Of a stretch of DNA of 64,000 nt, positions 7,537-29,931 are shown piece after piece. Origin of the DNA: an uncultured Candidatus Saccharibacteria bacterium (lineage in GTDB: Bacteria > Patescibacteriota > Saccharimonadia > Saccharimonadales > Saccharimonadaceae); contig CAUQSJ010000004.1 of the NCBI GenBank assembly GCA_963520835.1, positions 18,158-82,157 on the forward strand, written 5' to 3'. Positions within the stretch are counted from its first letter, which is position 1; each line of letters opens with the position of its first letter. A program made the translations under genes and the position numbers. The notes beneath the pieces are model-generated. The model was given only the letters and a program-made list of their open reading frames with translations, was not told the DNA's origin and ran no database searches.

Positions 7537-7631
7537 CTAGAGGACTTCGTGTAGAGACGTTTGATTACTAGAGAACTTCGCGCAGAGAACGTTTGATTAC
7601 TAGAGAACTTCGCGTAGAGAACGCTTGATTA
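7537..7631 (-). repeat. 3 tandem copies (31/32/32 bp) of the ldh 3' end including the stop codon
   Basis: Copies at 7537-7567, 7568-7599 and 7600-7631. The last is the coding copy, ending IKRSLREVL-TAG. Copy 2 differs from the coding copy at 2 positions. Copy 1 has about 3 substitutions and a 1-nt deletion. Confidence 0.9.
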
Positions 7632-8514
7632 CATTGATGGAAGATTGCATACGGATGGCTTCCATCTCAGTAAGTTCGGTGTCGAGACGACGCACGATTC
7701 CCTTGCGGCCGACGATAGTAGGAAAACCAAAGAAGCAGTCGGAAAAATTATCATAAGTGGAAACTGGTAAGACGCGATTTTCGTCATTGAAAATACAATT
7801 CACGATACGAGTTACGCAGGCGCCGATGCCATAATATGTGGCACCTTTTTTGTTAATAATTTCGTAAGCCTGGTTCTTAGTGTCAGTTTCAATATTTTTG
7901 AGTTCAGAAGCTGAGATCAAATCAGTAATTGGTTGACCGCCAATATTAGCATTCGACCAGAGAGCAAATTCGCTGTCGCCATGTTCGCCCACTTGATAGG
8001 CGTGAACGGATTTTGGTGAAATGCCGAGACGATTAGCTACGTTATATTTTAGGCGGGCGGAATCGAGAACGGTGCCGGAGCCGATAACTTTGTGACTTGG
8101 AAAACCAGAATATTCCATGACGAGGTAGGATAAAACATCGACTGGATTGGTGACCATGAGAAAAATTCCCTGGAAGCCATTATTTACGAGATTTTCGACA
8201 ATTTCTTTGACGATTTTGGCGTTACGTGCGAGAAGTTCGGTACGGGTTTCACCACCTTTTTTCTGGGCGGCACCAGCGGTAATAATCACAAGATCGGTGT
8301 CTTTACTATCTTTTTCATAGGTTCCGGCGTGAATTTTCATGAAATTCGGTGAAACGGCTAGAGTGTCGCGTAGATCCATCGCTTCGCCCTCAGCATCAGC
8401 TTGATCTTGATCGATGAGAACGAGTTCATTGATGGCATTATGGGAAGAAACTAAAGAAAAACCAATACTGGCGCCAACGTTCCCTGTTCCAATAATCATC
8501 ACTTTGTTCGACAT
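7600..8514 (-). CDS. ldh: L-lactate dehydrogenase
   Basis: 304 aa. Motifs: Rossmann IIGTGNVGAS, ITAGAAQKKGETR substrate loop, VGEHGDSEF catalytic His region. Confidence 0.9.
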   Translation of the reverse strand: MSNKVMIIGTGNVGASIGFSLVSSHNAINELVLIDQDQADAEGEAMDLRDTLAVSPNFMKIHAGTYEKDSKDTDLVIITAGAAQKKGGETRTELLARNAKIVKEIVENLVNNGFQGIFLMVTNPVDVLSYLVMEYSGFPSHKVIGSGTVLDSARLKYNVANRLGISPKSVHAYQVGEHGDSEFALWSNANIGGQPITDLISASELKNIETDTKNQAYEIINKKGATYYGIGACVTRIVNCIFNDENRVLPVSTYDNFSDCFFGFPTIVGRKGIVRRLDTELTEMEAIRMQSSINVIKRSLREVL

Positions 8515-8581
8515 AGTTTTTCCACTCTGAAATTAAAAATATTATAGAAATGCTTACGTTTATTTTAACATATTTTTGCGA

Positions 8582-8711
8582 TTAGATTCGACGAATGTCC
8601 CAGTTAATATTAGTGGTGATGAGGTTTAAATTTGACGAATATCCCAGTTGATATTGGCAATGGGAGTCTTAAATTTGACGAACGTCCCAGTTAATACTAG
8701 CGGTAGCGACG
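8582..8711 (-). repeat. 3 tandem copies (44/43/43 bp) of the 3' end of CDS 8669-9478 including the stop codon
   Basis: Copies at 8582-8625, 8626-8668 and 8669-8711 (coding). Read on the minus strand, every copy ends in NINWD[IV]R[QR]I-TAA. Confidence 0.85.
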
Positions 8712-9478
8712 TCGAGAAGGTTTTGCGGATTCCAGGTGGCAAGCGCGGCGATTTTGGCGGGAAGCATGCCAGTCCAGAGAGAAAGCGGAGTGAAATTGGT
8801 GTGATCGAGGCGGATGGTATAGACTTCGCCAGCTTTGTCTATAATAATCTGGTCGCTATGTAGAGTGATAAGCGTTAGCGGATAACTGATAGTGAATTTG
8901 TGTAAGGTTTCAATTACAGAAGTGAGCGGCATGGAAAGTAGGAGCATTTTAGGAAAATAAACGGCTTGAAAAAGTTTTTGCAGCTGTGGCATAGTGGTAA
9001 GTAGAATCAGGTTTTCGTGCTGGAGATTTTCTTCAGCGTTATTGGTAATAATTTCAATAGCATCACGACAGGCTACGACTACTTGATTTTTGTGAAGTGA
9101 TTTTAGGGCTTCGTTAATGGCGATGGAAGTGGTGGAATTTTTGGAAAAATTACCGGATAGAAAAATCGTATCAGCAGAAAGAAAACTTTCGGTGAGTTTT
9201 TCGTGACGATCGAAGGAGCCAGAGGGAGTAGATTTTAGAAAATCGATGTAATTAATTACCGGAAGTTTGTTTTGAAGAGTGTCTGGTAAAAATAATTTAA
9301 GAGTTTTAAGTGGTAATTTTTCGAGAAACTCGGTGGTGCGAATTTCACTTAGAAAATTTTCGCTATTGCCACCAAAAATTGAAAGACGGCCAGATTTTTG
9401 GGTGGGGATATTCCATAAAATATTGTGGTCTTCGTTACCGATAAGTTTGTGCCAGTAGGTGAAATTATTGGGATTCAT
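8669..9478 (-). CDS. hypothetical protein; weak resemblance to the YjeF-C / ribokinase-like fold
   Basis: 269 aa. GRLSIFGGNS near the N-terminus and TGMLPAKIAAL near the C-terminus sit where NAD(P)HX dehydratases carry GGS..GA and GSGDVLAG. The motifs are degenerate, so the function call is weak. Confidence 0.3.
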   Translation of the reverse strand: MNPNNFTYWHKLIGNEDHNILWNIPTQKSGRLSIFGGNSENFLSEIRTTEFLEKLPLKTLKLFLPDTLQNKLPVINYIDFLKSTPSGSFDRHEKLTESFLSADTIFLSGNFSKNSTTSIAINEALKSLHKNQVVVACRDAIEIITNNAEENLQHENLILLTTMPQLQKLFQAVYFPKMLLLSMPLTSVIETLHKFTISYPLTLITLHSDQIIIDKAGEVYTIRLDHTNFTPLSLWTGMLPAKIAALATWNPQNLLDVATASINWDVRQI

Positions 9479-9497
9479 AATGTTGGGATTTAGAATG

Positions 9498-10346
9498 TTA
9501 AAAATTTAGGGTGATAGAAATTGGGCAGTGGTCAGAACCGAGAATGGATTCGTAAATTTCAGCGGCTTCAAGATTTTTTTCAAGTGATTTTGAAATGAAG
9601 AAATAATCAATACGCCAACCTATATTATTTTCGCGCGCCTTCCCCCAGTGTGACCACCAAGTATAGCGAGCAGTGTCAGGGTTAAGCGAGCGAAAAGTAT
9701 CAATGAAATCTTGTTTTAGAATTTCGGAAATACCTTGACGTTCTTCGATGGTGAAGCCAGCATTTTTGGTATTTTGTTTCGGACGTGCGAGATCAATTTC
9801 TTGGTGTGCGGCATTAAAATCGCCACAGACTACCACGGGTTTGGTTTTTTCGAGATGTTTCAAATAAGCCAGAAAGAGCGGGTCCCAAAGTTCATGACGT
9901 AGTTTGAGACGCGATAAATCAGTTTTGGAATTTGGGGTATAAACATTAACTAGATAGAAATTTTCGGTTTCAAGCGTAAGAACGCGACCTTCAGAAAACG
10001 GCGAACCAAAGCCGTCATTTTCGAGAAGTTTTGATTTTGCTTGATCGAAATCGGGGCTTTTAAAATATTCGGAAAGATTGGTTTCGATGGAAAGGATTTT
10101 TTGATCGGTTTTAGCAATGGTCATAGTACCAGAATAGCCAGCACGTTCCGCAGAGTTCCAGTTTAATTGATAATTTTCTAGCGGAGTGTTTAAAATTTCC
10201 TTTTCAACTTGTTCAGGTTTAGCTTTAACTTCTTGGAAACAGCAAAAATCTGGATTTTCGGTGTTAAGAAAGTTTTGAATAGCTTGTTTTTTCAAGACAG
10301 CACGCATGCCATTTACGTTCCAGGAAAAAAGACGAATTTTAGACAT
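9498..10346 (-). CDS. xth: exodeoxyribonuclease III (AP endonuclease)
   Basis: I chose the start at MSKIRLFSWNVNGMRA (ATG 10346). The longer track ORF would overlap smpB. ExoIII motifs: WNVNG, QEVK, CGDFN, SDHCP. Confidence 0.88.
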   Translation of the reverse strand: MSKIRLFSWNVNGMRAVLKKQAIQNFLNTENPDFCCFQEVKAKPEQVEKEILNTPLENYQLNWNSAERAGYSGTMTIAKTDQKILSIETNLSEYFKSPDFDQAKSKLLENDGFGSPFSEGRVLTLETENFYLVNVYTPNSKTDLSRLKLRHELWDPLFLAYLKHLEKTKPVVVCGDFNAAHQEIDLARPKQNTKNAGFTIEERQGISEILKQDFIDTFRSLNPDTARYTWWSHWGKARENNIGWRIDYFFISKSLEKNLEAAEIYESILGSDHCPISITLNF

Positions 10347-10776
10347 GTAGACGCTTTCTAGCCTCTCGATCGAGGTCATGATTTTTAATCGAAACACGCT
10401 TGTCATAGCGTTTTTTACCGGTAGCGAGGGAGACCTCGATTTTAATATAACGATCGCCGCCAAATAATTTAGTTGGTACGATGGTGTTGCCGAGTTGTTT
10501 AGATTTTTCGAGTGAATGAAGCTGCTTTTTGGTGATGAGCAGACGAATGTTGCGGGCGGTTTCGGCACCAAGTGTGAGGTTGTTTAGCCAGAGTTCGCCA
10601 TCCTTAATAGTGACAAATGAGCCTTTAAGTTGGACGTGGTGATCACGAATTAGGCGGACTTCCGGTCCGGTCAAGCTCATACCGCAGATAATTTTATCGC
10701 CGAGATGATAATCAAAACTCGCACGTCGGTTGACGGCGACAGAAGAGGTTTGCTTTGGTTTTGATTTTTTACCCAT
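10339..10776 (-). CDS. smpB: SsrA-binding protein SmpB
   Basis: 145 aa. NRRASFDY..GxEV..LK..L...DGE.WL pattern plus a basic C-terminal tail. 8-nt overlap with the xth start. Confidence 0.9.
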   Translation of the reverse strand: MGKKSKPKQTSSVAVNRRASFDYHLGDKIICGMSLTGPEVRLIRDHHVQLKGSFVTIKDGELWLNNLTLGAETARNIRLLITKKQLHSLEKSKQLGNTIVPTKLFGGDRYIKIEVSLATGKKRYDKRVSIKNHDLDREARKRLHV

Positions 10777-10820
10777 AGCTTAATTATAACAGATACTAAA
10801 AGTGTTATATAATAGAGATT

Positions 10821-12101
10821 ATGAAAATTGTGATTGCTTCTGATATTTATTATCCGATGACGAATGGAGTGGCGGTGTTTGCGCATAATTTAGCTAATGG
10901 CTTGGCTCAGGCGGGTCATGAAGTTTTGGTGATCGCGCCAAGTTTTACGGGGGAATATCATGAAGAAATCGATGAAAAAACTAGAGTGAAGACTGTTCAT
11001 TTGTCTTCAATTCGATTCCCTTTTTATCCTGACCAAATCAATCCAGTGCCAGAGAATCCGGAATTTTTAGGTATACCTTTGCCGCGATTAACTTATAAAA
11101 ATGGTATTTGGTGGACGGTTAACCCTTGGGTGGAAGTGAAGAAGGTGTTGGATGAATTTCAGCCAGATGTGATACATCTCCAGACGGCGGAATTTATTGC
11201 GCTTGCGGTAATGAGCTATGTGAAGAAACGAGACGTTCCACTAGTTTCAACTGGTCACGCGTATCCGGATAATATTACTGATCAACTATTTTTCTTACAA
11301 CCAAAGCCGCTTAAAAAATTATCGAATGCGATCTTGAAGGCGCACATGATGAGTTTTTTGAAAAATTCTGAATATGCGACGATGCCAACCGAGATTGCAA
11401 TTGGTGATTTGGTGCCAAAAAATCGTAAATATTTTAAAGTACCGGTAGAGGCGCTTTCAAATGGGGTAGATTTAGCACAGTTTAAGCCGGCACCAGCTAG
11501 TCAGGAGATTTTGAAAAAATATCATCTGGATGATGGTAAGAATAAAATTATGTACATCGGACGGGTGGATCCGGAAAAAAGTATTGATGTAGCGGTGAAA
11601 GCTTTTGCTTTGCTTCTAGCGGACGGAATTTCGAATATTGAACTAGTGATTGTGGGTGACGGTATCGATGTGGTGAGATTAAAAGAACTTACCGAGGAGC
11701 TGGGCATTAGTGATGAGGTAAAATTCCTCGGTAAAATTATGATGCCGGAACTCGCAAAAGTTTATCGCATGGGTACAATGTTTGCTACGGGCTCTGAGAC
11801 TGAGACTCAAGGAATTGTTTTGATTGAAGCGGCAGCGACTGGTTTGCCTCTTGTGGCTGTGAACGCTGGAGCAGTGGGGGAAATTTGTGTCGATGGTTTT
11901 AACGGTGAACTTGTGGAAGTTGGCAACATCGAAGCGTTCAAAGAAGCTATGAAAAAGATTCTTTTGGACAAGAAACTTCAAAAAGAATATAGTAAAAATT
12001 CTTTGGAAATTTCAAAGAAACATGATTTGAGACATACTTTGAAGCGCTTCGAAGAAATTTATGAGGAAGCGATTCGCTTAAAACGTGCAGAAGCGGAATA
12101 A
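10821..12101 (+). CDS. glycosyltransferase family 4 (GT-B)
   Basis: 426 aa. N-terminal MKIVIASDIYYPMTNGVAVF and the E-x7-E region ETETQGIVLIEAAATGLPLVAV. Confidence 0.85.
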   Translation: MKIVIASDIYYPMTNGVAVFAHNLANGLAQAGHEVLVIAPSFTGEYHEEIDEKTRVKTVHLSSIRFPFYPDQINPVPENPEFLGIPLPRLTYKNGIWWTVNPWVEVKKVLDEFQPDVIHLQTAEFIALAVMSYVKKRDVPLVSTGHAYPDNITDQLFFLQPKPLKKLSNAILKAHMMSFLKNSEYATMPTEIAIGDLVPKNRKYFKVPVEALSNGVDLAQFKPAPASQEILKKYHLDDGKNKIMYIGRVDPEKSIDVAVKAFALLLADGISNIELVIVGDGIDVVRLKELTEELGISDEVKFLGKIMMPELAKVYRMGTMFATGSETETQGIVLIEAAATGLPLVAVNAGAVGEICVDGFNGELVEVGNIEAFKEAMKKILLDKKLQKEYSKNSLEISKKHDLRHTLKRFEEIYEEAIRLKRAEAE

Positions 12102-13120
12102 TGAGATTGGAGAAAATAATGCAGAAAAAATGGTCTTGGCAGGATTTACCTAAACATTTTACGATTTTAGCCCCGATGGAGGGGGTGACGGATGTGGTTT
12201 TTCGTCAAGTGATTAACCGGGCAGGTAGACCAGATGTGTTTTTTACGGAATTTACTAATGTTTCTTCTTTTGCTTCAGAGAAAGGTCGCGATAATGCACT
12301 TGAACGTCTCGATGTGGTGGAAACGGATTCGCCGATTATTGCGCAAATTTGGGGAAAAAATCCGGAGCAATTTGGTTTGCTGGCAAGTAAATTGGAAGAA
12401 CTTGGTTTTGATGGACTCGATATTAATATGGGCTGTCCAGATCGGCATGTCAATAAAGCGGGCGGTGGTGCAGCAATGATCCGTACGCCAGAATTGGCCC
12501 TTGAATGTATTCGTTCGGCGAAAGCAAACACTAATCTACCGGTTTCGGTGAAGACGCGCCTTGGCTTTACTTACGTCGATGAGTTTCGTGAATGGCTACC
12601 GAAAATTCTAGCGGAGGATGTGGCGAATTTGACGATTCATTTACGCACACGCAAGGAAATGTCAAAAGTACCAGCACATTATGAGTTAATCCCAGAGATT
12701 TTAGCTATTCGTGATGAAGTCGCACCACGAACTTTGATTACAATTAATGGTGATATTGCGGACATGGCGGATGTGAAAAAACTCAGCGAGGCTTATCCAG
12801 AGGTGGATGGTTTTATGATTGGTCGTGGGGTATTCTTCAATCCATATTGTTTTACTAATCGTAAACCAGTGGGGCTGGGTGGTGAAGTTGAAATTCCGGA
12901 GGTTATGGAATTATTCCGTTTTCATCTAGATGTTTTTGATGCGAGATGTGGAGAGTTAGAAGAACGCGGCTCGAGGTATCCATTTGAGCCACTGAAGCGT
13001 ATGTTTAAAGTCTACGTGAACTCTTTTGATGGAGCTTCGGACTTGCGCATAAAATTGATGGATTGCAAAAATACGACGGAAATTCGGGCGGTATTAGATG
13101 AATTTTGTGCAAAATTGTAA
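12101..13120 (+). CDS. dus: tRNA-dihydrouridine synthase
   Basis: 339 aa. Motifs LAPMEGVTD and DINMGCP, TIM-barrel FMN enzyme pattern. 1-nt TAATG overlap with the upstream gene. An alternative start exists at 12119. Confidence 0.85.
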   Translation: MRLEKIMQKKWSWQDLPKHFTILAPMEGVTDVVFRQVINRAGRPDVFFTEFTNVSSFASEKGRDNALERLDVVETDSPIIAQIWGKNPEQFGLLASKLEELGFDGLDINMGCPDRHVNKAGGGAAMIRTPELALECIRSAKANTNLPVSVKTRLGFTYVDEFREWLPKILAEDVANLTIHLRTRKEMSKVPAHYELIPEILAIRDEVAPRTLITINGDIADMADVKKLSEAYPEVDGFMIGRGVFFNPYCFTNRKPVGLGGEVEIPEVMELFRFHLDVFDARCGELEERGSRYPFEPLKRMFKVYVNSFDGASDLRIKLMDCKNTTEIRAVLDEFCAKL

Positions 13121-13126
13121 CAAAAA

Positions 13127-13147: not shown

Positions 13148-13154
13148 CTCTAGA

Positions 13155-13816: not shown

Positions 13817-13849
13817 TATGATTAATCTATGATTAATCTATGATTAATC
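13817..13849 (-). repeat. 3 perfect tandem copies of an 11-bp unit (TATGATTAATC) spanning the stop of CDS 13844-14023
   Basis: Copies at 13817-13827, 13828-13838 and 13839-13849. The last contains the final Asp codon plus TAA. Confidence 0.85.
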
Positions 13850-14023
13850 GTTGTAGAACCCTAGGGTTCTAGCTGAATTTAGCATCACCTCCTTTTCGGA
13901 ATCCCAAGCTCCCTGAAAATATTCAGGATGATTTTTGTAATCTTGCGCAAATCTCTGAACATCCCCAGGGTTGCTGGAATCATAGCTATTGCCATAAACA
14001 TCGTTGGTTATAATAACGCCCAT
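13844..14023 (-). CDS. hypothetical small protein (59 aa from ATG 14023; the track ORF starts at TTG 14047)
   Basis: GGAAGGGGG Shine-Dalgarno-like run 5-8 nt upstream of ATG 14023. No recognisable domain. Confidence 0.4.
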   Translation of the reverse strand: MGVIITNDVYGNSYDSSNPGDVQRFAQDYKNHPEYFQGAWDSEKEVMLNSARTLGFYND

Positions 14024-14119
14024 ATGGAAACCCCCTTCCATAAACAAGCAATTTTCACGTACACTAACCTAAATCCTAGTTAGATTAGACGGCTTAATTC
14101 TACCATAAAAATGCTGATA

Positions 14120-14810: not shown

Positions 14811-14824
14811 GATATAAATCTCCT

Positions 14825-14935: not shown

Positions 14936-15505
14936 ATGGGTAGAAGGCATATCAAAAATCGGGTATATCAAAGAACCGAACGAAAAATTTTTAATGCTTT
15001 GGCAAGTATATCAAAAGATAAAAGTTTAGCCGAAATCCAAATACGCGAGCTTGTCAGGGTAGCTAAGATTGCTGAGTCGACATTTTATGATCATTATCGT
15101 AATTTGGCAGATTTGATGAATAAAAATCGTGCTGTTTTCTTGAAACATCTGGAAGATGAAGTAAAAACAAATTTTCAATTAGAGATGAGTATGGAACAAT
15201 TTTATGAAAAATTGTTCATTTTTTTATACAAAGAAAATCGTTTGGAATTAATGCAGATGGACTTTCATAAAATGATGAATTTGGCGTTATTTCGAGTGGA
15301 ATTTAAGATGTTGATTTATCGCTTTTGGAATCGCTATGATCCGGAGCTAATGGAAGCAATCTACGACCATTTCCTGGCAGATTTAGTGGCAGAATTGTAT
15401 CGTTGGCGTCGCGAAAAATATCACAAAAACTTTATCGTGAAGCACGCGCGAAATTTGGTATATTTGACGAAAAATGCCCCGAGATTTTATGTGAATTTGG
15501 CTTAG
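14936..15505 (+). CDS. TetR/AcrR-like transcriptional regulator (divergent)
   Basis: 189 aa. The N-terminal segment IRELVRVAKIAESTFYDHYRNLADLM matches the TetR HTH signature (..A.vs..tfY.hF..k..L). The remainder is helical. Confidence 0.5.
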   Translation: MGRRHIKNRVYQRTERKIFNALASISKDKSLAEIQIRELVRVAKIAESTFYDHYRNLADLMNKNRAVFLKHLEDEVKTNFQLEMSMEQFYEKLFIFLYKENRLELMQMDFHKMMNLALFRVEFKMLIYRFWNRYDPELMEAIYDHFLADLVAELYRWRREKYHKNFIVKHARNLVYLTKNAPRFYVNLA

Positions 15506-15598
15506 AAAAAACGTGAATTTGGCCTGGAAATATATGAAGCTGAATTATATATACGCGAATCTGGATTAGAAATACGTAAACCTAGCTTGGAAAATGGA
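15491..15598 (+). repeat. about 5 degenerate tandem copies (21-22 bp) of the 3' end of the TetR-like gene
   Basis: GTGAATTTGGCTTAGAAA (15491, coding, stop TAG 15503-15505), GTGAATTTGGCCTGGAAA (15513), a degenerate copy near 15535, GCGAATCTGGATTAGAAA (15555), GTAAACCTAGCTTGGAAAA (15576). Together they fill the whole convergent spacer up to the nrdG stop. Confidence 0.7.
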
Positions 15599-15599
15599 G

Positions 15600-18883: not shown

Positions 18884-21547
18884 CTACTTAGAATACAGTC
18901 TTCTCTTAAGATATCTAGGTATGCCAGAGTCAGGTACGGCTGGAATAATTTTTTTAGTATTCTTATCTTGGGTAGTTGTTGAGTCTGGCTGTTTCTGATG
19001 ATTAGATTTTTCTTTTGATTCTATGCTCGGATGAGATGAATGATCTTCTTGGTGATTTTTTGTGTTAGGGGTATCGGAGTTATTGTTATGGTCTTCATTA
19101 TTTTTCTCGGAATTAGAATGCTTATCTGGTTTAGATTTATTATCGGTTTTTTGCTTATCGGGCTTTCCGCTCCCTGGCTCCCTTTTATCTTCAGACTCCT
19201 TTTTGCCTTCAGATTCCTTTTTATCTTCGGACTTTTTATTAAAAATGCCACGGAGTCGGTCTGTAAGATTTTCAGTTTGTTCCGAAAAGGCATTATGTTT
19301 TAGAATATCTAATTCTCGAAGTAGGTCGCCAAAATGATTGTCTTCAGGCTCCTCTGGTGGTTTCGGTGGCTCGGAAGGGTCGGGATTGGTGGAGTTATTC
19401 GAATTACTTGGATTATTTGGATTACTTGGATTGCTCGAATCGTTTGTCTTATTGGAGTCGCCTGAATTGCTTGGATTATCTGAATCTTCCGAATCGTCGG
19501 TTTTATCTGGTTTGCTATCCTTGATTGGAATGTTTTGCTCTTCGGTTTTATAGATCCTAGCGTCATCGCCGATATAATGGATTAAAATATGGTGAGCTTT
19601 GGTGGGGTCGAGTTTGTCAAAATTTAGGTTGTCGCTGGAAGTGAACCCTTGAGCCACACCGTCAATAACCAGTAGCTTCTGTTTGGTTTCATGGTGATAA
19701 TTTGGGTTAGAAATTTTAGTCGGAAGCGGGGTGATTTCAGCACGCCATTTACGGCCTTTAAATTCAAGCTCGACGATTTTTGGCCTTAAATCTTCGAATT
19801 CGACAAATTTAGTTGCATAATGCTCAGGATCTTGTTGCAGACGAAGTGGTCGATCAGTGTAGGTGTTGGTGATACTGAAATTATTTCCGTCGAATGTCAC
19901 AGTATAGGTTGGAATATCTCCATTTTGAGCACGAGTCTTTGGCTTATTCTCCACTAACTCTAATTTTTCATCGATGAATTTTTCACTAGCGGCGTTACTA
20001 AAATAATGACCATGCATATCAAGGGTAAAATCATAAACCGAACGGGTATATTCTGACCTACCACCATCGCCATTGATGATAAACGGTGTGAGATGTTTAG
20101 CCTCTAAAAGATATTTAAGCTTCTGGATGTACTCACCACTAGCGTAATCGAAATAGATTTCGGCTGGAGTAGAGAGAATGAAACCTTTAGTGGTGTCGTG
20201 TTGAAGTTTTTGTTCGGACGAAATTTGATAGATTGCTTGGTAGAGGTCAATGATCGATGCGTTTTTCACGGAAGTATTAGACTCGTCGTAATATTGTTTT
20301 AGTTGCTGCTCTAACTGAAGTAGATTGTCGGTGTTGGTATTAAAATCTGTAATTTTTTGATATTTGGCAAAACCATGATGGTCGGTAGCGAAATTTACTT
20401 TATAGATATGAAAAAGTGCATGCCTATGTTTTCTGGCTTCGATATTGCTAATTAGTTTTTTGTATTGCAAAGACAAGGCGGCTGGATTGGCTTTATTAAA
20501 ATTAATGGCGACAATATATTCATGATCGATACTATTGATTTTTGGATGAGCCAAACGATCCTGGAGTTGCTTAATGAAATATGGCGAATAACCAACATTT
20601 AGAGTGCCAGGTTTTGCGAGTTTTTTTGCGCCATGTAGAATTTGACCAATTATATGTGCAGATTCGGCGTAAGCATCGCGGTCTGCATAGGCAAGATGCC
20701 CTGAAATAAGGTTTTGATGGATAAACTGGAATTTTCCGAGATTGATTTCGGAAAATCCTAGTGGGTCAAAGAAGCTACCGCACATAAAATCACCGGAATT
20801 GCACCAAGTACCAATTTTCCCGGAAAACTTAGTGTTTGGCAGATAAGGTTTTTGCGCTCCTAGGATGCCATGCTCTACATCACAATCGGGGACATTAATG
20901 CGATAATCGGAATGTATACCATGATAACATGGTTTGTCCTTACCTTCTCCTTCTGGGAGATGTAATTTAGGATCGCCGAAAGTTGAGAGGTAGATAATTT
21001 TTTCGGGATCAAATGTGCGAATGGCGTGACTCATCACGATGGCGCCCTGAGAATAGCCACCGAGAATAAATTTAGTATTCGGACAGCGATGAGTGATATC
21101 GTGATATAGTGTATGTATTTCGTTGATGCCCGTCGTTACACTATTGTTAAAATAATCATTTTTGCCAGCATGAATATAGGTATCGGCAATTGCTCCGAGA
21201 TTCTCTACGCTCACGGCTGGATATTGATATTTATATCGGTTTGATTCTCCGAGGTCATAAAAATCGTAGGATTTATTTGCTGACTGTAAAACCCCGACGA
21301 GATTATCTTTAAATTTTTGATAATTAATATTAGTCTTAGCTTTCTCTCCTGAACCTCGAGCGAAGACGGCTTGAATGTCTTTGCACTCAACGGCTTTCGA
21401 ATTGACAGAGGCTAGTGGTGTCAGGCTAGTAATACATATAGCCAAAGCACTGGAAAAATAGAGAAAGCGCGGAGTTTTTTGGGGTATCTTAGGCTTAATT
21501 TTGGGTTTTTTACAAACAACAAAATGAGACTGTCTGGATGAGGACAT
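18884..21547 (-). CDS. large secreted protein: N-terminal cutinase-like serine esterase domain, about 350-aa unknown middle region, low-complexity K/D/S/N/P-rich tail
   Basis: Start chosen at ATG 21547 (AGGAAA RBS; the track ORF begins at 21619). Signal-like FLYFSSALAICITSLTPLASVNS. Cutinase hallmarks: C..IQAVFARGSGE and GGYSQGA nucleophile elbow. Tail repeats: SNPSNPNNPSNSNNSTNP and KKESEGKKESEDK. Confidence 0.65.
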   Translation of the reverse strand: MSSSRQSHFVVCKKPKIKPKIPQKTPRFLYFSSALAICITSLTPLASVNSKAVECKDIQAVFARGSGEKAKTNINYQKFKDNLVGVLQSANKSYDFYDLGESNRYKYQYPAVSVENLGAIADTYIHAGKNDYFNNSVTTGINEIHTLYHDITHRCPNTKFILGGYSQGAIVMSHAIRTFDPEKIIYLSTFGDPKLHLPEGEGKDKPCYHGIHSDYRINVPDCDVEHGILGAQKPYLPNTKFSGKIGTWCNSGDFMCGSFFDPLGFSEINLGKFQFIHQNLISGHLAYADRDAYAESAHIIGQILHGAKKLAKPGTLNVGYSPYFIKQLQDRLAHPKINSIDHEYIVAINFNKANPAALSLQYKKLISNIEARKHRHALFHIYKVNFATDHHGFAKYQKITDFNTNTDNLLQLEQQLKQYYDESNTSVKNASIIDLYQAIYQISSEQKLQHDTTKGFILSTPAEIYFDYASGEYIQKLKYLLEAKHLTPFIINGDGGRSEYTRSVYDFTLDMHGHYFSNAASEKFIDEKLELVENKPKTRAQNGDIPTYTVTFDGNNFSITNTYTDRPLRLQQDPEHYATKFVEFEDLRPKIVELEFKGRKWRAEITPLPTKISNPNYHHETKQKLLVIDGVAQGFTSSDNLNFDKLDPTKAHHILIHYIGDDARIYKTEEQNIPIKDSKPDKTDDSEDSDNPSNSGDSNKTNDSSNPSNPNNPSNSNNSTNPDPSEPPKPPEEPEDNHFGDLLRELDILKHNAFSEQTENLTDRLRGIFNKKSEDKKESEGKKESEDKREPGSGKPDKQKTDNKSKPDKHSNSEKNNEDHNNNSDTPNTKNHQEDHSSHPSIESKEKSNHQKQPDSTTTQDKNTKKIIPAVPDSGIPRYLKRRLYSK

Positions 21548-22817: not shown

Positions 22818-24011
22818 CTAGAGCGATTTAGCTTTATCAAGTTGAGGATCTTTGTCTTCGGTGATATCCTGGACGGTGCGATCAATTTCGACGTCTGGCT
22901 TGATTCCGGTCTTATTGATTGAGGAGCCATTCGGTGTATACCAGTGAGCGGTAGTGACCTTGAGTTTACCTCCATCGCTAAGATTGAGCATAGTCTGCAT
23001 GACACCTTTTCCAAAAGAAGTCATACCGACAATAGTGGCTTTTTGATAATCTTTGAGGGCGCCAGCAACGATTTCAGAGGCAGAAGCAGTAGAGCGATTA
23101 ATCAGAACGATGGTTTTGGTGTCCTTAAAAATAGGATTTTTGCCACGAGGGACGTAGTCGGTTTTGTCGTCGTTATGGATAGATTTTTCAATCATATATT
23201 TATCACCGCCGTTAAGCCAAAGAGAGAGCATTTCACCCGCCGCTGAGACATAGCCACCACCGTTATTGCGAAGGTCAAGGATAACTTTATCAACTTGCTT
23301 GGCTTTAGCTTGCTCAGCGAGCTTACGCACAAGAGAGCCGGTGTCTTCGGCGAAGCGGTAAACAGAGATAATGGCGGTTTTATCACTATAGGAAATGTCG
23401 GCGGAGACGTTGTTAATTTTTTCGCGAGTCATTTCGAAAGTCAGAGTGTCGGTACCGCGGAGTACTTCAACTTTAACCTTATCACCGGATTTGCCGCGAA
23501 GTTTTTTGGCGACATCTTCGGTGGTTTTACCATCTACGTTTTCGTCATTAATTTTTACGATACGATCACCTGGTTTAATGCCTGCCTTACGAGCAGGATT
23601 GTCTGGAAGTGTGCGTACTACCACCGTGTGATTGTTGCGAAAAGTTAGCTCCATGCCAACTCCGGCTTCATTAATTTCACCATTGAGATCGGATAAGAAT
23701 TCATTCCCTTCTTTGGCAGTAAGATAAGTAGTGTAGGGATCATCAAGTGCAGCGGCAATACCACGCTTGGCTCCAGTGAGGGCGTTATCTTCCGTGACTT
23801 CACCATCGTAGAAGGATTTTAACTCGGTGTAGAGTTCGTTAAGAGAATCCCAATTCGCTTGTTCGCTTTTACGAAAGCCAATATAAGGAGAAAAATTAGT
23901 AATTATAAATTGCCAATTAGAACCAACAAAAAAACCTGCAACGAGGAAAATAAATGAGGTGATAATTGAAGTGCTAAGATTGATTTTTCGTGGTTTCCAC
24001 TCTGTTTTCAT
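22818..24011 (-). CDS. S41 family C-terminal processing peptidase with a PDZ domain
   Basis: 397 aa. N-terminal TM, PDZ GIKPGDRIVKINDENV, LRNNGGGY, LINRSTASASEIVAGALKD (catalytic Ser region). Confidence 0.88.
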   Translation of the reverse strand: MKTEWKPRKINLSTSIITSFIFLVAGFFVGSNWQFIITNFSPYIGFRKSEQANWDSLNELYTELKSFYDGEVTEDNALTGAKRGIAAALDDPYTTYLTAKEGNEFLSDLNGEINEAGVGMELTFRNNHTVVVRTLPDNPARKAGIKPGDRIVKINDENVDGKTTEDVAKKLRGKSGDKVKVEVLRGTDTLTFEMTREKINNVSADISYSDKTAIISVYRFAEDTGSLVRKLAEQAKAKQVDKVILDLRNNGGGYVSAAGEMLSLWLNGGDKYMIEKSIHNDDKTDYVPRGKNPIFKDTKTIVLINRSTASASEIVAGALKDYQKATIVGMTSFGKGVMQTMLNLSDGGKLKVTTAHWYTPNGSSINKTGIKPDVEIDRTVQDITEDKDPQLDKAKSL

Positions 24012-24061
24012 TATTTAATTATAGCATAATCGGGAAAAGGGTATTCTTTTAATTCTTAGAA

Positions 24062-24089: not shown

Positions 24090-24117
24090 TAGTAGTTCCT
24101 GGTTGATTAGAAAGAGT

Positions 24118-25353: not shown

Positions 25354-25434
25354 TAAACTATACTCCACTATAATTTAATTTGTTATTTCGGTATCTTACG
25401 ATACTTTTGATATATTTTAGCATACGATGGTATG

Positions 25435-25562
25435 AAAAAGCAATGCTTATTTTGGCTTGGTGGAAGAAAAAGCTCTGCTTATTTTAAGCAGAGCGGAATA
25501 ACGCGATTAGGTAATTTAAGCAGAGCGGAATAAAATATTAGAGTCGCTTGAGATATTTGCGG
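25435..25562 (-). repeat. about 4 degenerate tandem 32-bp units derived from the ftsX 3' end
   Basis: Units at 25435-25466, 25467-25498, 25499-25530 and 25531-25562 (coding end, TAA 25538-25540). AAGCAGAGCGGAATAA occurs twice (25486, 25518). AAAAAGC..TGCTTATTTT occurs twice (25435, 25467). Unit C and the coding unit share TAA..ATTAG..GCGG. Confidence 0.65.
25472..25494 (-). terminator. rho-independent terminator of ftsEX
   Basis: 9-bp stem GCTCTGCTT/AAGCAGAGC with loop ATTTT. The minus strand continues TTTTTC. Confidence 0.6.
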
Positions 25563-26551
25563 ACGGCAATGGAAGACGAGAGGAAGGCGATAAAAATACC
25601 AAGTAGGGTGAGAGCTAGGCCAATTAGAAAGATGCTTGGTGAATTTACGAAACTAGAAACTAGAGTGACGTCAATGTCATAGCCACTGAGTTTTGGGGCG
25701 ATGAGGCGGAAGAGAAAGAAACCTATAATGGTTGATAAAATACCAGCAAAGAAGCCAGACATGATTGCCTCAATAAGAAATGGGCCACGTATGAAATGAT
25801 TATCGGCGCCAACTAATTTTTCCATGTAGATTTCTTCGCTACGAGAGTAAATGGCCATGCGGATGGTGTTGAAAATTACCAGAACGGAGATGACTAGAAG
25901 AATGAGAGAGATGGCGAGACCACCGGTTTTAGCAATGTTGGACCAAGAAGTAATGGTTTCAATAGCGGTATCATTGGTGTCGTAGGTCGGTTCCTTTTTT
26001 GGATCGAGATTTTCGTGGACTTCCGAATCGGTATTAACGATTTCCTTAATAGTATTAAGTTTATTGGTGTCGTAGACTTTTATGCGAAGTGCGGAAGGCA
26101 TAGAAGAAAGCATTAGTTCTTTCATGTCAGGATCATCGAGGGTAGAAAGGAGATTATTTTCATTATTTTTCTTAGTTTCCTCGACGAATTTATTAAATTC
26201 TTCTTCGGTAGTAGTGTAGGAAATTTGGCGTATGTTAGTGTCGGAAGAGAATTTTTTCTTGATTTTTTCAAGCGTAATAATTTCGGTATTAGGCTTAAAA
26301 TAAATGGTGATATCGACTTTTTCGCGCATTTTATCGGCGGTAGAAGATAACACTAAGCTAGCAGTGGCGGTAGCAAAAAGTAGAGTTAAAGTAAGAGTCA
26401 TCACGAAAGTCGAAGTGATAGAAAGCCAAATATTACGACCATAGCCAATGATGCCGTATTTCATGATGCGAAAATTAGTGCGAAGGAGATGTCCGCGACT
26501 GTTTTTCTGCATGGTCTTAAGTTTTCTTAAGGTTTCATTTTTTTGTTTCAT
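25538..26551 (-). CDS. ftsX: cell-division permease-like protein FtsX
   Basis: 337 aa. TM1, large extracytoplasmic loop, three C-terminal TMs. Lies directly downstream of ftsE. Confidence 0.85.
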   Translation of the reverse strand: MKQKNETLRKLKTMQKNSRGHLLRTNFRIMKYGIIGYGRNIWLSITSTFVMTLTLTLLFATATASLVLSSTADKMREKVDITIYFKPNTEIITLEKIKKKFSSDTNIRQISYTTTEEEFNKFVEETKKNNENNLLSTLDDPDMKELMLSSMPSALRIKVYDTNKLNTIKEIVNTDSEVHENLDPKKEPTYDTNDTAIETITSWSNIAKTGGLAISLILLVISVLVIFNTIRMAIYSRSEEIYMEKLVGADNHFIRGPFLIEAIMSGFFAGILSTIIGFFLFRLIAPKLSGYDIDVTLVSSFVNSPSIFLIGLALTLLGIFIAFLSSSIAVRKYLKRL

Positions 26552-26559
26552 AGGCTTCC

Positions 26560-27597
26560 TTATTGAATTAAACGGTGATTGCGCGAGCGTTTGGTCTGGT
26601 TGGATTCAGGTGGCCTGGAGCTGGCGATAGAATTGGAATTTTCGTGAGGAACTCTGAGCTGTGAACGTTGACTATCGCGGTAAAGTTCGGTTTCGCGTCG
26701 AGGAGTGGTCTCGCGACGAGGTCCAGTCTCATGACGGAATTCGGCCTCGCGACGAGGTTCGGTTTCTCGTCGAGGAGTGGTTTCGTGGCGAATAGTTTCG
26801 TAAGATGGGGTGGCCTCGCGGCGTAGCTCAGCTTCGGCGGTTTTGTAGAGATAAGAAGTCGGGCGCATGTGACCTGGTTGTGGTAAATCGGAAATACCGT
26901 CATTATCAGTGTCAAGGCGATAAATACCGTGCTCTTTTTGGTCGGAAATAATCTTACCATCACGCATAGTGATGACGCGCTTCTTTAAGAGATTGACGAT
27001 ATTGGCATCGTGGGTGGTAACTAAAATAGTGGTACCGTAATTGTTAATTTTTTGTAATAAATCAATAATTTCCTTAGAGGTTAAAACATCGAGGTTCCCA
27101 GTAGGCTCATCGGCAATGAGAATTTTTGGTTGACGAGCAACAGAGCGTGCAATCGAGACACGCTGTCTTTCCCCACCAGAGAGGTCGGCGGGAAAACGAT
27201 TAGCTTTATCGGAAAGGCCGACAAGATCGAGTACTTTTGGCACAGTATTTTCAATTTCATGATTCGACATGCCGGCAATTTCGAGAGCGAAGGCGACGTT
27301 TTCAAAAACTGTACGCGATGGGAGTAACTTGTAATCCTGAAAAACTACACCGATGCGACGACGGTAGTCTGGAATATGGCGACGTTTCACGTAATCAAGA
27401 TCGATGCCACCGATGATAATCTTGCCGGAATCTGGAGTAGCTTCCTTAGTAATCATCTTCAAGAGAGTAGACTTACCAGCACCGGATTTACCAACCAAAA
27501 AAACAAATTCATTAGCACTAATATGCAAGGAAATATCATCGAGAACAGCGCGGGTACCCTTACCGTAGCGCTTGGTGACATGATCGAACAATATCAT
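26560..27597 (-). CDS. ftsE: cell-division ATP-binding protein FtsE with a roughly 118-aa charged repeat tail
   Basis: 345 aa. Walker A GKSGAGKST, signature LSGGERQR, Walker B ILIADEPT. The extra C-terminus contains RREATP/RHETTP/RRETEP/RREAEF/RHETGP/RRETTP/RRETEL repeats. Confidence 0.9.
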   Translation of the reverse strand: MILFDHVTKRYGKGTRAVLDDISLHISANEFVFLVGKSGAGKSTLLKMITKEATPDSGKIIIGGIDLDYVKRRHIPDYRRRIGVVFQDYKLLPSRTVFENVAFALEIAGMSNHEIENTVPKVLDLVGLSDKANRFPADLSGGERQRVSIARSVARQPKILIADEPTGNLDVLTSKEIIDLLQKINNYGTTILVTTHDANIVNLLKKRVITMRDGKIISDQKEHGIYRLDTDNDGISDLPQPGHMRPTSYLYKTAEAELRREATPSYETIRHETTPRRETEPRREAEFRHETGPRRETTPRRETELYRDSQRSQLRVPHENSNSIASSRPPESNQTKRSRNHRLIQ

Positions 27598-27659
27598 ACT
27601 CTTATATTACCATAAACAGTAAGAATTAAAAAATGAAAAAGCCAGACACTAGGTTCTAA

Positions 27660-28745
27660 TTATTTTTGGCCAACTAGGGATTCGAGATAGGCGTCGATAA
27701 AATTGTCAATTTTGCCGTCAAGTACGGAGTCCACATCAGTTTCTTCGTATTTGGTGCGGGTATCTTTGACGAGTTTATAAGGTTGCATGACGTAGTTACG
27801 AATTTGCTGACCCCAACTGGCAGATTCGCCGGCACGTAATTGATTAATGGATTCGGCTTGCTGGTCTTGTTGCATTTTGAGTAGTTTACCACGAAGAATT
27901 TCCATGGCTTTTTCGCGGTTTTGGAGTTGGGAACGCTCATTTTGAATAGCCACCACGGTATTGGTCGGCAAGTGAGTGATGCGAATGGCGGAATTGGTGG
28001 TATTTACAGATTGTCCGCCATGTCCACCAGCGTGATAAGTGTCAATACGAAGGTCTTTTTCATCGATTTTTAGATCATCTTCGCTATCGAGAATCGGCAG
28101 AACTTCCACTAGTGAAAATGAAGTTTGGCGAAGGTTATCGGCGTTAAAAGGAGAAAGGCGCACCAGGCGATGTACGCCATGTTCAGACTTGAGGTGGCCA
28201 TACATTTCGGGGCCATAAACTTCGTAAACGGCAGTCTTGATACCGGCTTCTTCCCCTGTACTACGTTCGATTAATTCAATATCGTAACCATGTTTTTCGA
28301 AAAACCTTAGATACATGCGCTCCAAAATTCCTGCCCAGTCCATAGCCTCAGTGCCACCGGCGCCAGCGGTAATGCGAATAATGGCGTCCTTCTGATCGAG
28401 TGGGTCGGTGAAGCGGAGAGATTTTTTGAGTTCAGCGTAAGTTTCCTCGTGAGCGGTAAGTTGAGCCTCGATTTCCTCAGCGAGATCTTCGGCGGAAAGT
28501 TCGATTAACTCGTGTAGGTCATTCACTTGAGATTTGAGAATTTGCCAAGTGCTGAGCTCGCTTTCGAGTTTTTTGAGTTCAGTATTGACGGATTTGGCAC
28601 GAGCAAGATCGTTCCAGAGTTCAGGCTTGGCGGATTCTTCTTGAAGATGGGCGAGTCTAGCAAATTTTTCATCAAGATTTAGCTTAGCCCAGGTGTCATC
28701 AATCCCCTCTTGCAAGAGAGTGAGGCGTTTTTCGAGGTTATTCAT
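27660..28745 (-). CDS. prfB: peptide chain release factor 2 (single frame, no programmed frameshift)
   Basis: Start at MNNLEKRL (ATG 28745). SPF tripeptide (RLSPFNA) and GGQ (HAGGHGGQSVNTT). Confidence 0.9.
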   Translation of the reverse strand: MNNLEKRLTLLQEGIDDTWAKLNLDEKFARLAHLQEESAKPELWNDLARAKSVNTELKKLESELSTWQILKSQVNDLHELIELSAEDLAEEIEAQLTAHEETYAELKKSLRFTDPLDQKDAIIRITAGAGGTEAMDWAGILERMYLRFFEKHGYDIELIERSTGEEAGIKTAVYEVYGPEMYGHLKSEHGVHRLVRLSPFNADNLRQTSFSLVEVLPILDSEDDLKIDEKDLRIDTYHAGGHGGQSVNTTNSAIRITHLPTNTVVAIQNERSQLQNREKAMEILRGKLLKMQQDQQAESINQLRAGESASWGQQIRNYVMQPYKLVKDTRTKYEETDVDSVLDGKIDNFIDAYLESLVGQK

Positions 28746-28766
28746 ATAGATATTATAACTGATAAA

Positions 28767-28796
28767 GTGACAAGAGATGAGAAAATGTGGTATAAT
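28767..28796 (+). promoter_or_regulatory. sigma70-like promoter of tRNA-Gln(CTG)
   Basis: -35 GTGACA (28767-28772), 18-nt spacer, extended -10 TGGTATAAT (TATAAT 28791-28796). The tRNA starts 11 nt later. Confidence 0.5.
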
Positions 28797-28806
28797 GAAA
28801 AGACAT

Positions 28807-28881
28807 TGGAGATTCGCCAAGTGGTAAGGCAGTGGGTTCTGGTCCCACCATTCGGGGGTTCGAATCCCTCATCTCCAGCCA
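28807..28881 (+). tRNA. tRNA-Gln (anticodon CTG), CCA encoded
   Basis: Acceptor TGGAGAT/ATCTCCA, anticodon arm GTGGG-TTCTGGT-CCCAC, T arm GGGGG-TTCGAAT-CCCTC. Confidence 0.9.
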
Positions 28882-29097
28882 AGTTGAAATTATGATTAAA
28901 CTGCCGTAGATTTATGGTAGTTTTTTATTTTGTATTTTAATATTTTTTTGAATTTACTTAATATTTTTTGAAAATCTAGCTAGATTTTACGGTGTAGGAT
29001 TAGTTTTACAATATTTAAAAAGATCGGCCAGGTGTATGCTATTCTAAAAAAACTGTTATAAATGTGAAGACCGTGGTGATTTTGTTTAAACAAAAAA

Positions 29098-29121
29098 TCC
29101 CTAAATCTTGCGATTTAGGGA
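29098..29121 (-). terminator. rho-independent terminator after tRNA-Gln(TTG)
   Basis: 10-bp stem TCCCTAAATC/GATTTAGGGA with loop TTGC. The minus strand continues TTTTTT. Confidence 0.7.
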
Positions 29122-29133
29122 ACATAATTTTTG

Positions 29134-29208
29134 TGGCTGGATCGGCAGGATTCGAACCTGCGAATGCTGGGACCAAAACCCAGTGCCTTACCGCTTGGCG
29201 ACGATCCA
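29134..29208 (-). tRNA. tRNA-Gln (anticodon TTG), CCA encoded
   Basis: The reverse complement folds as TGGATCG..CTGGG-TTTTGGT-CCCAG..GCAGG-TTCGAAT-CCTGC-CGATCCA-G-CCA. Confidence 0.9.
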
Positions 29209-29217
29209 ATCTGTTAT

Positions 29218-29246
29218 ATTTTAGCACGAAAATTGATTTTTCACAA
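29218..29246 (-). promoter_or_regulatory. sigma70-like promoter of tRNA-Gln(TTG)
   Basis: Minus strand -35 TTGTGA (29241-29246), 17-nt spacer, -10 TAAAAT (29218-29223). 9 nt separate the -10 from the tRNA 5' end. Confidence 0.5.
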
Positions 29247-29334
29247 TAAAATTGGTGCTAATGAGATGCTTTGGCTATGATTTGGATTCTAGAAGGTAGG
29301 TGGATAATTTCGAAAATAGGGGGTAATTTTGAAA

Positions 29335-29931
29335 TTAAACTTCGTAATAATGCAGGGCACAATTTGGATATGGTTCTTCGATAATATTATCGTAAAGAAA
29401 TGAATAAAAAAGTTGTTCAGCGGTGCCACCACGCAAAACAAAGTCAATCAGGCGAAGAAAATCACCGTGAGAGACAATCAAAATTGTAGAATCTGGGTCA
29501 TTATTTTTGAATAATTCATTTTTGACAAAATCTTCTGCGCGGAGATACATGGAATGAATACTTTCCATGTTAAATCTTTCACTATTGAAGCGGTCTTTCC
29601 AGCTAATGCTGTGTAATTTTTGGCTATCCTTTCCTTCGAAAACGCCAAAAGCCCGTTCGACAAGACGACGGTCGTATTGAATGTGGCAGAGATGCTGATG
29701 GTCAATGTGGTTGGTTTTGGGATCGAGGTGACCAGTGACGATTTGAGCGGTTTTGCTAGTACGCATCAGAGGTGAGGCGTAGCAGCGATCAAACTGCACA
29801 TTCTTCAGTTGACGTTTGATTTTGAGGGCTTGTTTGACGCCAGTGGTATTAAGATTAGTATCGAGTAATCCGGCATTCACACCTTGTTTGTTCGCATCGG
29901 TTTCGCCGTGCCTTAGAGTATAAATCTTCAT
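29335..29931 (-). CDS. histidine phosphatase family protein (phosphoglycerate-mutase-like)
   Basis: 198 aa with the RHGETDAN catalytic motif at the N-terminus and a later SHGDF His motif. Confidence 0.8.
   Translation of the reverse strand: MKIYTLRHGETDANKQGVNAGLLDTNLNTTGVKQALKIKRQLKNVQFDRCYASPLMRTSKTAQIVTGHLDPKTNHIDHQHLCHIQYDRRLVERAFGVFEGKDSQKLHSISWKDRFNSERFNMESIHSMYLRAEDFVKNELFKNNDPDSTILIVSHGDFLRLIDFVLRGGTAEQLFYSFLYDNIIEEPYPNCALHYYEV

Follow-up and report, generated by a model that had tools for sequence, protein, structure and literature searches.

Several genes in a 64,000-nucleotide stretch of DNA from an uncultured Candidatus Saccharibacteria bacterium, called the window throughout this paper, are followed by one to four decaying head-to-tail copies of their own last 11-44 nt, stop codon included. 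These tail arrays behave like ordinary intergenic variable-number tandem repeats (VNTRs): their units are contiguous and head-to-tail, and their copy number varies from strain to strain. They are probably non-functional by-products, generated by frequent short tandem duplication together with unequal recombination and then screened by selection. Oddly, the newest copies end right at the stop codon. The pattern is real but smaller than a first-pass annotation of this DNA had claimed. Three clear tail arrays are present in the window, one further array is marginal and one was validated via other strains, while the proposed cases at ftsX and prfB had to be excluded.

The L-lactate/malate dehydrogenase (LDH) protein encoded at 7600-8514 on the minus strand shares 99% identity with the LDH of 'TM7 phylum sp. 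oral taxon 351' and with those of about 20 other metagenome-assembled genomes (MAGs) of human-oral Saccharibacteria. Its identity to the protein of Candidatus Nanosyncoccus nanoralicus is 72-74%. Due to the 99% identity to oral taxon 351 the window is assigned, as judged by this protein, to the HMT-351 (G3) clade of the human-oral Saccharibacteria (TM7). For comparison 166 related loci, designated here by L numbers, were collected by exact-protein look-ups, one scan of species-representative genomes and one scan of metagenome contigs. A scaffold of the European Nucleotide Archive that is represented among them (L001, L098, L136) is identical to the window at every compared part. Exact-protein look-ups for the 234-aa protein, SecA and nrdG returned no match or the source contig alone.

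Tail arrays in the window

Tandem Repeats Finder (TRF) was run on the window, and the array sequences were also read directly. In addition the last 48 nt of each of 57 open reading frames (ORFs) were compared with the next 150 nt by Smith-Waterman alignment, with 100 dinucleotide shuffles as the null. The features concerned are as follows.

7600-8514, minus strand: ldh, L-lactate/malate dehydrogenase (Pfam Ldh_1_N and Ldh_1_C), stop TAG at 7600-7602
7537-7631, minus strand: ldh tail array, three head-to-tail 32-nt units, every one with a terminal TAG
8669-9478, minus strand: coding sequence (CDS) of 269 aa, stop TAA at 8669-8671, no Pfam match
8582-8711, minus strand: tail array of the 269-aa CDS, units 8669-8711 (in the ORF), 8626-8668 and 8582-8625, each terminated by TAA
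9468-9499, minus strand: 15-nt in-frame duplication over the start of the 269-aa CDS (TRF 15 nt x 2.1)
13817-13849, minus strand: 11-nt array, perfect x 3 (GATTAATCATA; TRF 100%), at the small ORF 13844-14047, which is called as a 59-aa gene
14936-15505, plus strand: 189-aa CDS, stop TAG at 15503-15505, no Pfam match
15488-15598, plus strand: degenerate 21-nt tail array of the 189-aa CDS, about five units, which fills the spacer to the convergent nrdG (stop 15600)
25435-25537, minus strand: ftsX spacer array, units of about 32 nt, downstream of the ftsX ORF 25538-26551
29252-29334, minus strand: spacer of the histidine-phosphatase gene from stop to tRNA promoter, with degenerate tail-like units (18-20 nt) in the window
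29335-29931, minus strand: histidine phosphatase, stop at 29335-29337

At ldh the unit within the ORF (7600-7631) is followed by unit 2 (7568-7599), which carries two synonymous-type differences, and by unit 3 (7537-7567), which is 31 nt long because of a 1-nt deletion. The array stops immediately before CTTTATGG, and the junction of TAG and CTTTATGG is constant in all strains compared. TRF reports 7537-7632 as 32 nt x 3.0 with 90% match, and the tail score is 54 against a shuffle maximum of 27. For the 269-aa CDS the corresponding values are 8582-8704, 43 nt x 2.8 with 76% match, and a tail score of 47 against 23. The three units of 32 bp and of 43-44 bp that had been described for these two genes are therefore confirmed by both methods.

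The array behind the 189-aa CDS is degenerate. TRF covers 15491-15577 (21 nt x 4.1, 66% match), and by eye the units can be followed to about 15598; the tail score is 22 and the highest score among the shuffles 23. At the stop position the successive units have TAG/TGG/TAT/TAG/TGG, and the boundary of the unit lies about 3-5 nt past the stop. In strain L138 the array is sharper (5.1 copies). The degenerate array of about five 21-nt units at 15491-15598 can be maintained in this form, but the label 'TetR-like' that the gene had received is unsupported, as the protein has no Pfam match. The spacer between this CDS and nrdG (15506-15599) is hypervariable, with at least three unrelated sequence types among strains and tail-like fragments (GTG..GCTTAG) in each of them.

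The 11-nt array at 13817-13849 is indeed a perfect threefold repeat. However, only 6 nt (GATTAA) fall within the small ORF 13844-14047, and the unit boundary lies 5 nt past the stop.

The array downstream of ftsX exists, yet it does not consist of about four copies of the gene tail as had been proposed. It is built from copies of the 5' half of an intrinsic terminator (hairpin 25472-25494), whose resemblance to the ORF tail does not exceed 7-10 nt, and the tail score of 17 is within the shuffle range. This spacer, with a fold z of -3.97, is the sole array with an intrinsic terminator. The statement of the first-pass annotation that terminator hairpins do not explain the arrays is in line with this, since the fold z is significant at the ftsX spacer alone. 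No tail duplication is supported at prfB (27635-27684), which was listed as a weaker case and has a score of 12, within the shuffle range. The second weaker case, the histidine phosphatase, also scores within that range in the window (16), where its units are degenerate, but clean 21-nt and 28-nt tail copies are found in other strains.

Copy number among strains

The number of units differs between strains at each of these places. Genomes whose LDH proteins are 99% identical carry one ldh unit (L008, L025), two (most genomes) or three (the window, L012, L016, L022, L024 and L027). The 269-aa CDS has one unit in L017, two in L008, L009 and L021 and three in most strains, and the end of this array is constant, just upstream of T[CT][GT]CAAAATATG. 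Three, two or one copies of the 11-nt unit occur depending on the strain, and the ftsX array has two copies in the window and four in L090 and L095.

The histidine-phosphatase gene provides the widest set of forms. Four strains are without any insert, the stop lying directly against the tRNA promoter. A perfect 21 nt x 2 array is found in L090, L113, L120 and L123, and a 28-nt unit is present two or three times in L093, L094, L095, L114, L135 and L141. All of the 21-nt and 28-nt copies finish at the stop, and in several strains older degenerate units lie distal to them.

Three further genes, each with one copy of its 3' end in the window, have tail copies in other strains.

12087-12101, plus strand: 3' end of the GT4 glycosyltransferase gene (10821-12101)
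31542-31554, minus strand: 3' end of the Mur ligase gene (31542-32873)
56950-56978, minus strand: 3' end of the AI-2E transporter gene (56950-58041)

The GT4 tail forms three to four units of 21 nt in L007, L008, L011 and L016, with TAG/TGA/TAA in register. An extra 29-nt copy of the AI-2E tail stands directly after the stop in L097 only (one of ten strains). At the Mur ligase gene a stop-spanning 38 nt x 2 array is present in L141 and L154, with its boundary 25 nt past the stop. Short cases outside the HMT-351 clade were seen in L041, L054, L060 and L076.

Frame filter and asymmetry of gene ends

A census of repeat families was made in a 2.3-Mb comparison set drawn from the 166 related loci. 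The ORFs were picked greedily with a minimum length of 90 aa, and TRF arrays with a period of at least 10 and a score of at least 40 were kept. Arrays sharing 9-mers were merged into families, by which orthologous duplicates were removed. The families are distributed as follows.

Inside an ORF: 129 families, period a multiple of 3 in 107, not so in 22 (mostly weak)
Entirely between genes: 22 families, period a multiple of 3 in 12, not so in 10
Spanning a stop: 17 families, period a multiple of 3 in 6, not so in 11
Spanning a start: 4 families, period a multiple of 3 in 3, not so in 1

The numbers show a filter for the reading frame inside ORFs, which is absent from the stop-spanning arrays, and an asymmetry of 17 to 4 between the two gene ends. 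Both are predicted by duplication plus a selection filter and support it. The proposal that only those duplications are retained which keep the ORF intact is borne out by these counts as well as by the strains that carry one to three copies behind identical proteins.

It had also been stated that no comparable repeats exist at gene 5' ends. The asymmetry stands, but one clear 5'-end case is found in the window itself: the 15-nt duplication at 9468-9499 is located where the Exo_endo_phos gene ends (stop 9498-9500) and the 269-aa CDS begins (ATG 9476-9478). Depending on the strain this CDS is called as 269 aa or 274 aa, due to this duplication across the start codon.

In-frame 18-nt expansions differ among strains in AspRS, FtsE and other ORFs, which indicates that the rate of tandem duplication is high in general.

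Some of the in-frame repeats (18-24 nt units) alter the length of the protein. They are located in ftsE (26685-26775), in the genes of a cutinase-like protein (19178-19440) and a trypsin-like protease (52772-52858) and at the C-terminus of AspRS (38845-40344). By strain, FtsE has 325, 334 or 345 aa, AspRS 499-529 aa, the cutinase-like protein 869-893 aa and the protease 505-517 aa. The variable tail of AspRS is rich in Ser, Glu and Asp. Strain-specific tandem duplications of 15 nt and 18 nt occur in the spacer that separates the convergent protease and prmC genes (homologous to window 51437-51526), at 1716-1753 in L152, 317-354 in L154 and 15328-15365 in L159 and L165. PrmC has 306 or 309 aa, and this spacer is 30 to 126 nt long.

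Recombination between lineages and decay of the units

The strains are mosaic. Against any other strain, windows of 100-200 nt swing between 0-1 and 10-35 mismatches per 200 nt. At the ldh gene of the window, the final 100 nt have 0-1 mismatches to L012, L016 and L017, and the 100 nt before that have 5-13.

As a general observation, L001-L027 and L097-L105 diverge from the window by 5-17% in most stretches of 100-200 nt, and identical stretches change partner every few hundred bases. LDH and similar proteins are still 99% identical in this mosaic population.

The distal units of the arrays take part in this exchange. Among the full-length distal units of ldh, 11 of 12 are nearer to the ORF allele of another strain than to their own ORF unit and four are identical to one, a comparison that is somewhat biased as the best of six foreign alleles is set against one own unit. 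Units 2 and 3 of the window are identical to the whole two-unit array of L009. In L097 the distal AI-2E copy equals the ORF allele of L103 and L105, and the ORF unit resembles that of L102. The third 28-nt unit at the histidine phosphatase of L095 matches the allele of L087, its TGA stop included. From these matches it follows that distal units are often former or foreign functional alleles and that recombination between lineages reshuffles the arrays.

Distal units also decay. A 1-nt deletion is present in five of the 13 distal unit variants of ldh, others have non-synonymous changes, and the stop triplet is gone from part of the units of the 269-aa CDS. Altogether 72 differences between units were counted, 58 transitions versus 14 transversions, with transitions in both directions. 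In the decaying ldh copies (7537-7599 and their homologues in L002-L064), transitions from CG to CA or TG and 1-nt deletions predominate.

Proposed origin of the arrays

The explanation that we favour, duplication followed by selection, can be put as a series of steps. The compact genomes of a highly recombining Saccharibacteria population would undergo tandem duplication of 10-45 nt at a high rate. Inside an ORF a duplication would be retained only if the frame is kept and the insertion is tolerated, and one across a start codon would usually disrupt expression. If it extends from the ORF tail through the whole stop codon, the protein would be unaltered and the copy could remain as spacer DNA. 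As soon as a second unit is present, units may be gained or lost in one register by unequal recombination, also with DNA of lineages that are 10-15% divergent. The ORF-proximal unit would stay under protein selection and may often be overwritten by an imported allele, and the distal units would decay by transitions and 1-nt deletions.

The first-pass annotation had already suggested duplication with a filter. This account is supported, but it lacked the recombination between lineages and the excess of unit boundaries at the stop codon. The arrays, their variation in copy number, the frame filter, the asymmetry of gene ends, the allele-like distal units and their decay are direct observations; the molecular mechanism of duplication, and the reason why the founding breakpoint tends to lie 0-2 nt past the stop, are inferred.

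Unit boundaries at the stop codon

A tandem duplication keeps every original junction, and a filter for intact ORFs therefore predicts boundaries anywhere downstream of the stop. Three observations weigh against duplication plus filter as a full explanation. First, in six to seven of nine informative families the boundary lies 0-2 nt past the real stop. These are the arrays of ldh (32 nt), the 269-aa CDS (43/44 nt), the histidine phosphatase (21 nt and 28 nt), AI-2E (29 nt) and L041 (16 nt), with the 21-nt array of GT4 as a probable member, in register to within a 4-nt indel. If boundaries were uniform, the probability (Poisson-binomial) of at least six of eight informative arrays falling within 0-2 nt would be 8e-4; it is 4e-5 with GT4 counted and 0.013 under a generous five-position null, all three values being post hoc and based on few events. 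Second, two hold-out samples of 10 further strains each, covering window positions 30-67 kb, contained no new stop-spanning family, and the independent events are still few. Third, the cases are unevenly spread, with about eight array loci in about 64 kb of the HMT-351 clade versus only a few in the approximately 1 Mb compared from other Saccharibacteria.

The anchoring at the stop is not strict. In two-copy arrays, with orthologous duplicates removed, seven junctions lie within +/-2 nt of the stop end, five in the preceding 28 nt and about 12 in the following 28 nt. Counter-examples are the 38-nt array of the Mur ligase (+25), the 189-aa CDS (+3 to +5) and the 11-nt array (+5).

Several simple causes of the anchoring were considered and rejected. 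Microhomology or ambiguity at the junction amounts to 0-2 nt at ldh, at the 21-nt array of the histidine phosphatase, at AI-2E and at the 16-nt array of L041; only the 28-nt array of the histidine phosphatase has 4 nt (AATT), so that microhomology is rejected as the source. Homology that ends at the stop would suit three loci (AI-2E, the histidine phosphatase, the 189-aa CDS); it is contradicted by the conserved flanks at ldh, the 269-aa CDS and GT4. A fixed promoter coordinate of the breakpoint does not apply either, as the stop lies at about -21, -27 and -41 from the inferred transcription starts, with no common position. A hairpin directly after the stop is present at ldh only. Primase trinucleotide (CTA/TTA) sites would not be specific to the real stop, nor do the left breakpoints agree with them.

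The stop-anchored breakpoints are a genuine oddity; that a specific mechanism lies behind them is possible, though less likely than not. Such a process would have its breakpoint set by the end of translation or by the end of homology, and with each import of a new 3'-end allele, or each re-synthesis of the tail, the resident tail with its stop would be pushed downstream; we consider this origin of the tail copies possible but rather doubtful. In its explicit form, to which we give a similarly low probability, an incoming or newly made strand ends at the stop and is joined upstream to the resident strand, whose tail is displaced. Candidate triggers would be recombination tracts between divergent lineages that end together with homology, or replication stalling just past the ORF. 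Every event would write one former allele into the spacer.

Apart from the position of the boundaries, the existence of two periods (21 and 28 nt) at the same histidine-phosphatase gene speaks for such a breakpoint process. ORF-proximal units lie in short imported tracts, and distal units are foreign ORF alleles with their own TAA or TGA stop variant. The ldh ORF allele of the window precedes the complete two-unit array of others in three backgrounds, exactly in comparison to L009 and near-exactly in comparison to L012 and L016. Past AI-2E, the histidine phosphatase and the 189-aa CDS the spacers are heterologous between lineages. Yet at ldh, the 269-aa CDS and GT4 the strains share a conserved sequence downstream, so that homology continues past the stop, and the perfect copy in L090 points to an event within a single genome. 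Moreover, once two units exist, the allele patterns follow from unequal homologous recombination alone, and the counter-examples and the post hoc character of the statistics given above tell against the process as well.

Alternative explanations

A function of the copies, as back-up stops, as protection of mRNA 3' ends or as reserve C-terminal cassettes swapped in by slippage, appears improbable. The stop at the homologous position is kept in all ldh units, in most units of the 269-aa CDS and in the GT4 array (TAG/TGA/TAA). In the distal ldh variants there are no substitutions in 39 stop positions, compared with an estimated expectation of about three, and the units often differ by changes that are silent when read in the frame of the ORF. 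However, synonymous-looking differences and kept stops would both arise because the distal units are former or foreign ORF alleles, and no selection on the copies is needed. Single-copy strains are found at each locus. With units of 32, 43, 28, 29 or 16 nt the homologous stop is out of frame; it is in frame solely in the 21-nt and 15-nt arrays. The frameshifting deletions and non-synonymous changes in distal ldh variants and the lost stops in some units of the 269-aa CDS do not agree with a function either. Finally, the arrays have no RNA structure beyond that of shuffles, with fold z values of +0.8 (ldh), -1.6 (269-aa CDS), -1.0 (189-aa CDS) and -1.9 (a further array). The functional alternative raised by the first-pass annotation is not supported.

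We regard it as very improbable that the arrays are artefacts of mixed-strain metagenome assembly, in which allelic variants were misplaced in tandem. Such an error could account for distal units that look like the alleles of other strains, and most of the sequences are indeed MAGs or metagenome contigs. But the arrays are shared by a single-cell genome (L007, TM7_HOT_351-SAG3) and by dozens of independent assemblies from differing projects and assemblers. With 63-130 nt they also fit within the final k of the k141 contigs, so that single read k-mers span whole arrays, and the decayed units with indels match no ORF allele.

A diversity-generating retroelement (DGR), with a variable repeat at the ORF 3' end and a template repeat just downstream, or an array of the CRISPR kind (clustered regularly interspaced short palindromic repeats) deserves practically no credence: the near-copy of an ORF 3' end directly downstream gives a superficial likeness to the layout of a DGR, but 23 of the 72 differences fall on an A of the distal copy, which is about the base frequency, 58 of the 72 are transitions in both directions, a pattern that rules out a DGR, the units of 11-44 nt are far below DGR repeat length, and CRISPR is contradicted by units that are contiguous, with no unique spacers in between. 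No reverse transcriptase or cas gene is present among the Pfam-annotated genes, which cover almost the whole window except for a few small ORFs without match. The earlier dismissal of both systems is upheld.

Comparison to known systems

Neither stop-anchored tail duplication in bacteria nor tandem repeats in the spacers of Saccharibacteria were found described in a full-text search of the literature, in agreement with the earlier remark that no description of the pattern as a systematic feature was known.

The mycobacterial interspersed repetitive units (MIRUs) are reportedly intergenic VNTRs. The tail arrays share with them units of tens of bases in short spacers, a copy number that varies by strain and an overlap with the stop of the upstream gene. 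MIRUs are said to form one dispersed family at many loci, with small ORFs coupled to the flanking genes, whereas here each unit is taken from its own upstream gene. The units match the tail of their own gene only, and clustering by shared 9-mers gives a separate family per locus, so that the arrays do not qualify as elements of the MIRU type.

In phage genomes mosaic joints are reportedly found at gene boundaries and have been attributed to selection on random illegitimate events. There, too, recombination junctions coincide with ORF ends. However, those joints are said to connect different genes and to be without tandem copies of a gene's own tail, and the selection argument made for them predicts no junction at the stop for a tandem duplication.

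In polymorphic toxin loci (Rhs, CdiA) displacement of the C-terminus leaves silent 'orphan' modules. As in those loci, a recombined new 3' end replaces the expressed one and the old end lies silent downstream, which yields a tandem record of former ends. Displaced former or foreign alleles were found at ldh, AI-2E and the 28-nt array of the histidine phosphatase; toxin and immunity content was not. Rhs and CdiA modules comprise hundreds of bases with toxin domains and immunity genes under diversifying selection, in contrast to the tail units, which are 4-14 housekeeping codons with mostly synonymous variants.

Flap-derived duplications are said to occur in yeast rad27/FEN1 mutants. Microhomology-mediated tandem duplication is the subject of a study in S. 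pombe (bioRxiv 10.1101/2020.03.03.972455). As with the events of both kinds, tandem duplications of about 10-100 nt arise and revert at high rates and selection decides which of them are seen. They differ in that those events involve several bases of microhomology and have no known preference for stops, while the junctions described here mostly have 0-2 nt, with the 4 nt noted above as the exception.

Tandem duplication-random loss, known from the mitochondrial genomes of animals (PMC5370444), likewise fills the spacers of a compact genome with decaying tandem copies of neighbouring gene sequence. The segments duplicated there are entire genes or control regions and are not anchored at stops; here it is gene tails only.

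Further features of the window

The G+C content of the window is 41%, and its GC skew is strongly positive (+0.05 to +0.29 on the plus strand across 1-64000). At third codon positions the genes of the plus strand have a skew of +0.40, and those of the minus strand, read on their coding strand, one of -0.50. The C-rich minus strand holds 40 of 52 long ORFs. Either the majority of genes here run head-on to replication, or this lineage does not follow the usual skew convention.

The stops of 53 long ORFs are TAA in 42 cases, TAG in 10 and TGA in one. A gene of an RF2-type release factor, prfB (27660-28820), is present despite the near-absence of TGA stops, and the histidine-phosphatase gene ends in TGA in some strains.

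Rfam matches in the whole window are limited to four tRNAs. The tRNA-bearing spacer between the histidine phosphatase and prfB (28820-29335; compared in L087-L096 and L137-L146) is a strain-variable island site. Its cargo is, depending on the strain, GmrSD, DUF2268 with CYTH and radical SAM, YcaO with a nitroreductase, or a HindVP restriction-modification pair; in the window it contains two tRNA genes only.

Promoters at 7516-7536 and 24011-24035 resemble the extended -10 type (TGnTAAAAT or TGnTATAAT) and lie 6-7 nt upstream of an ATG. This spacing suggests that the mRNAs of the DUF2207 gene and the S41 protease gene may be leaderless.

Implications

If duplication followed by selection is the right explanation, the arrays would be a clean natural example of how selection shapes the products of frequent tandem duplication when the genome is compact. 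Repeats that preserve the frame would survive within genes, and free-running repeats only where the stop is carried along. The arrays would also be ready strain-typing markers for an abundant oral TM7 clade. Should the anchoring at the stop prove true, it would point to an undescribed link of ORF ends to DNA rearrangement in a naturally recombining population. In that case one could read the spacers of these Saccharibacteria as stacked former gene ends, a history of past alleles, and the stop codon would be a hotspot of duplication junctions.

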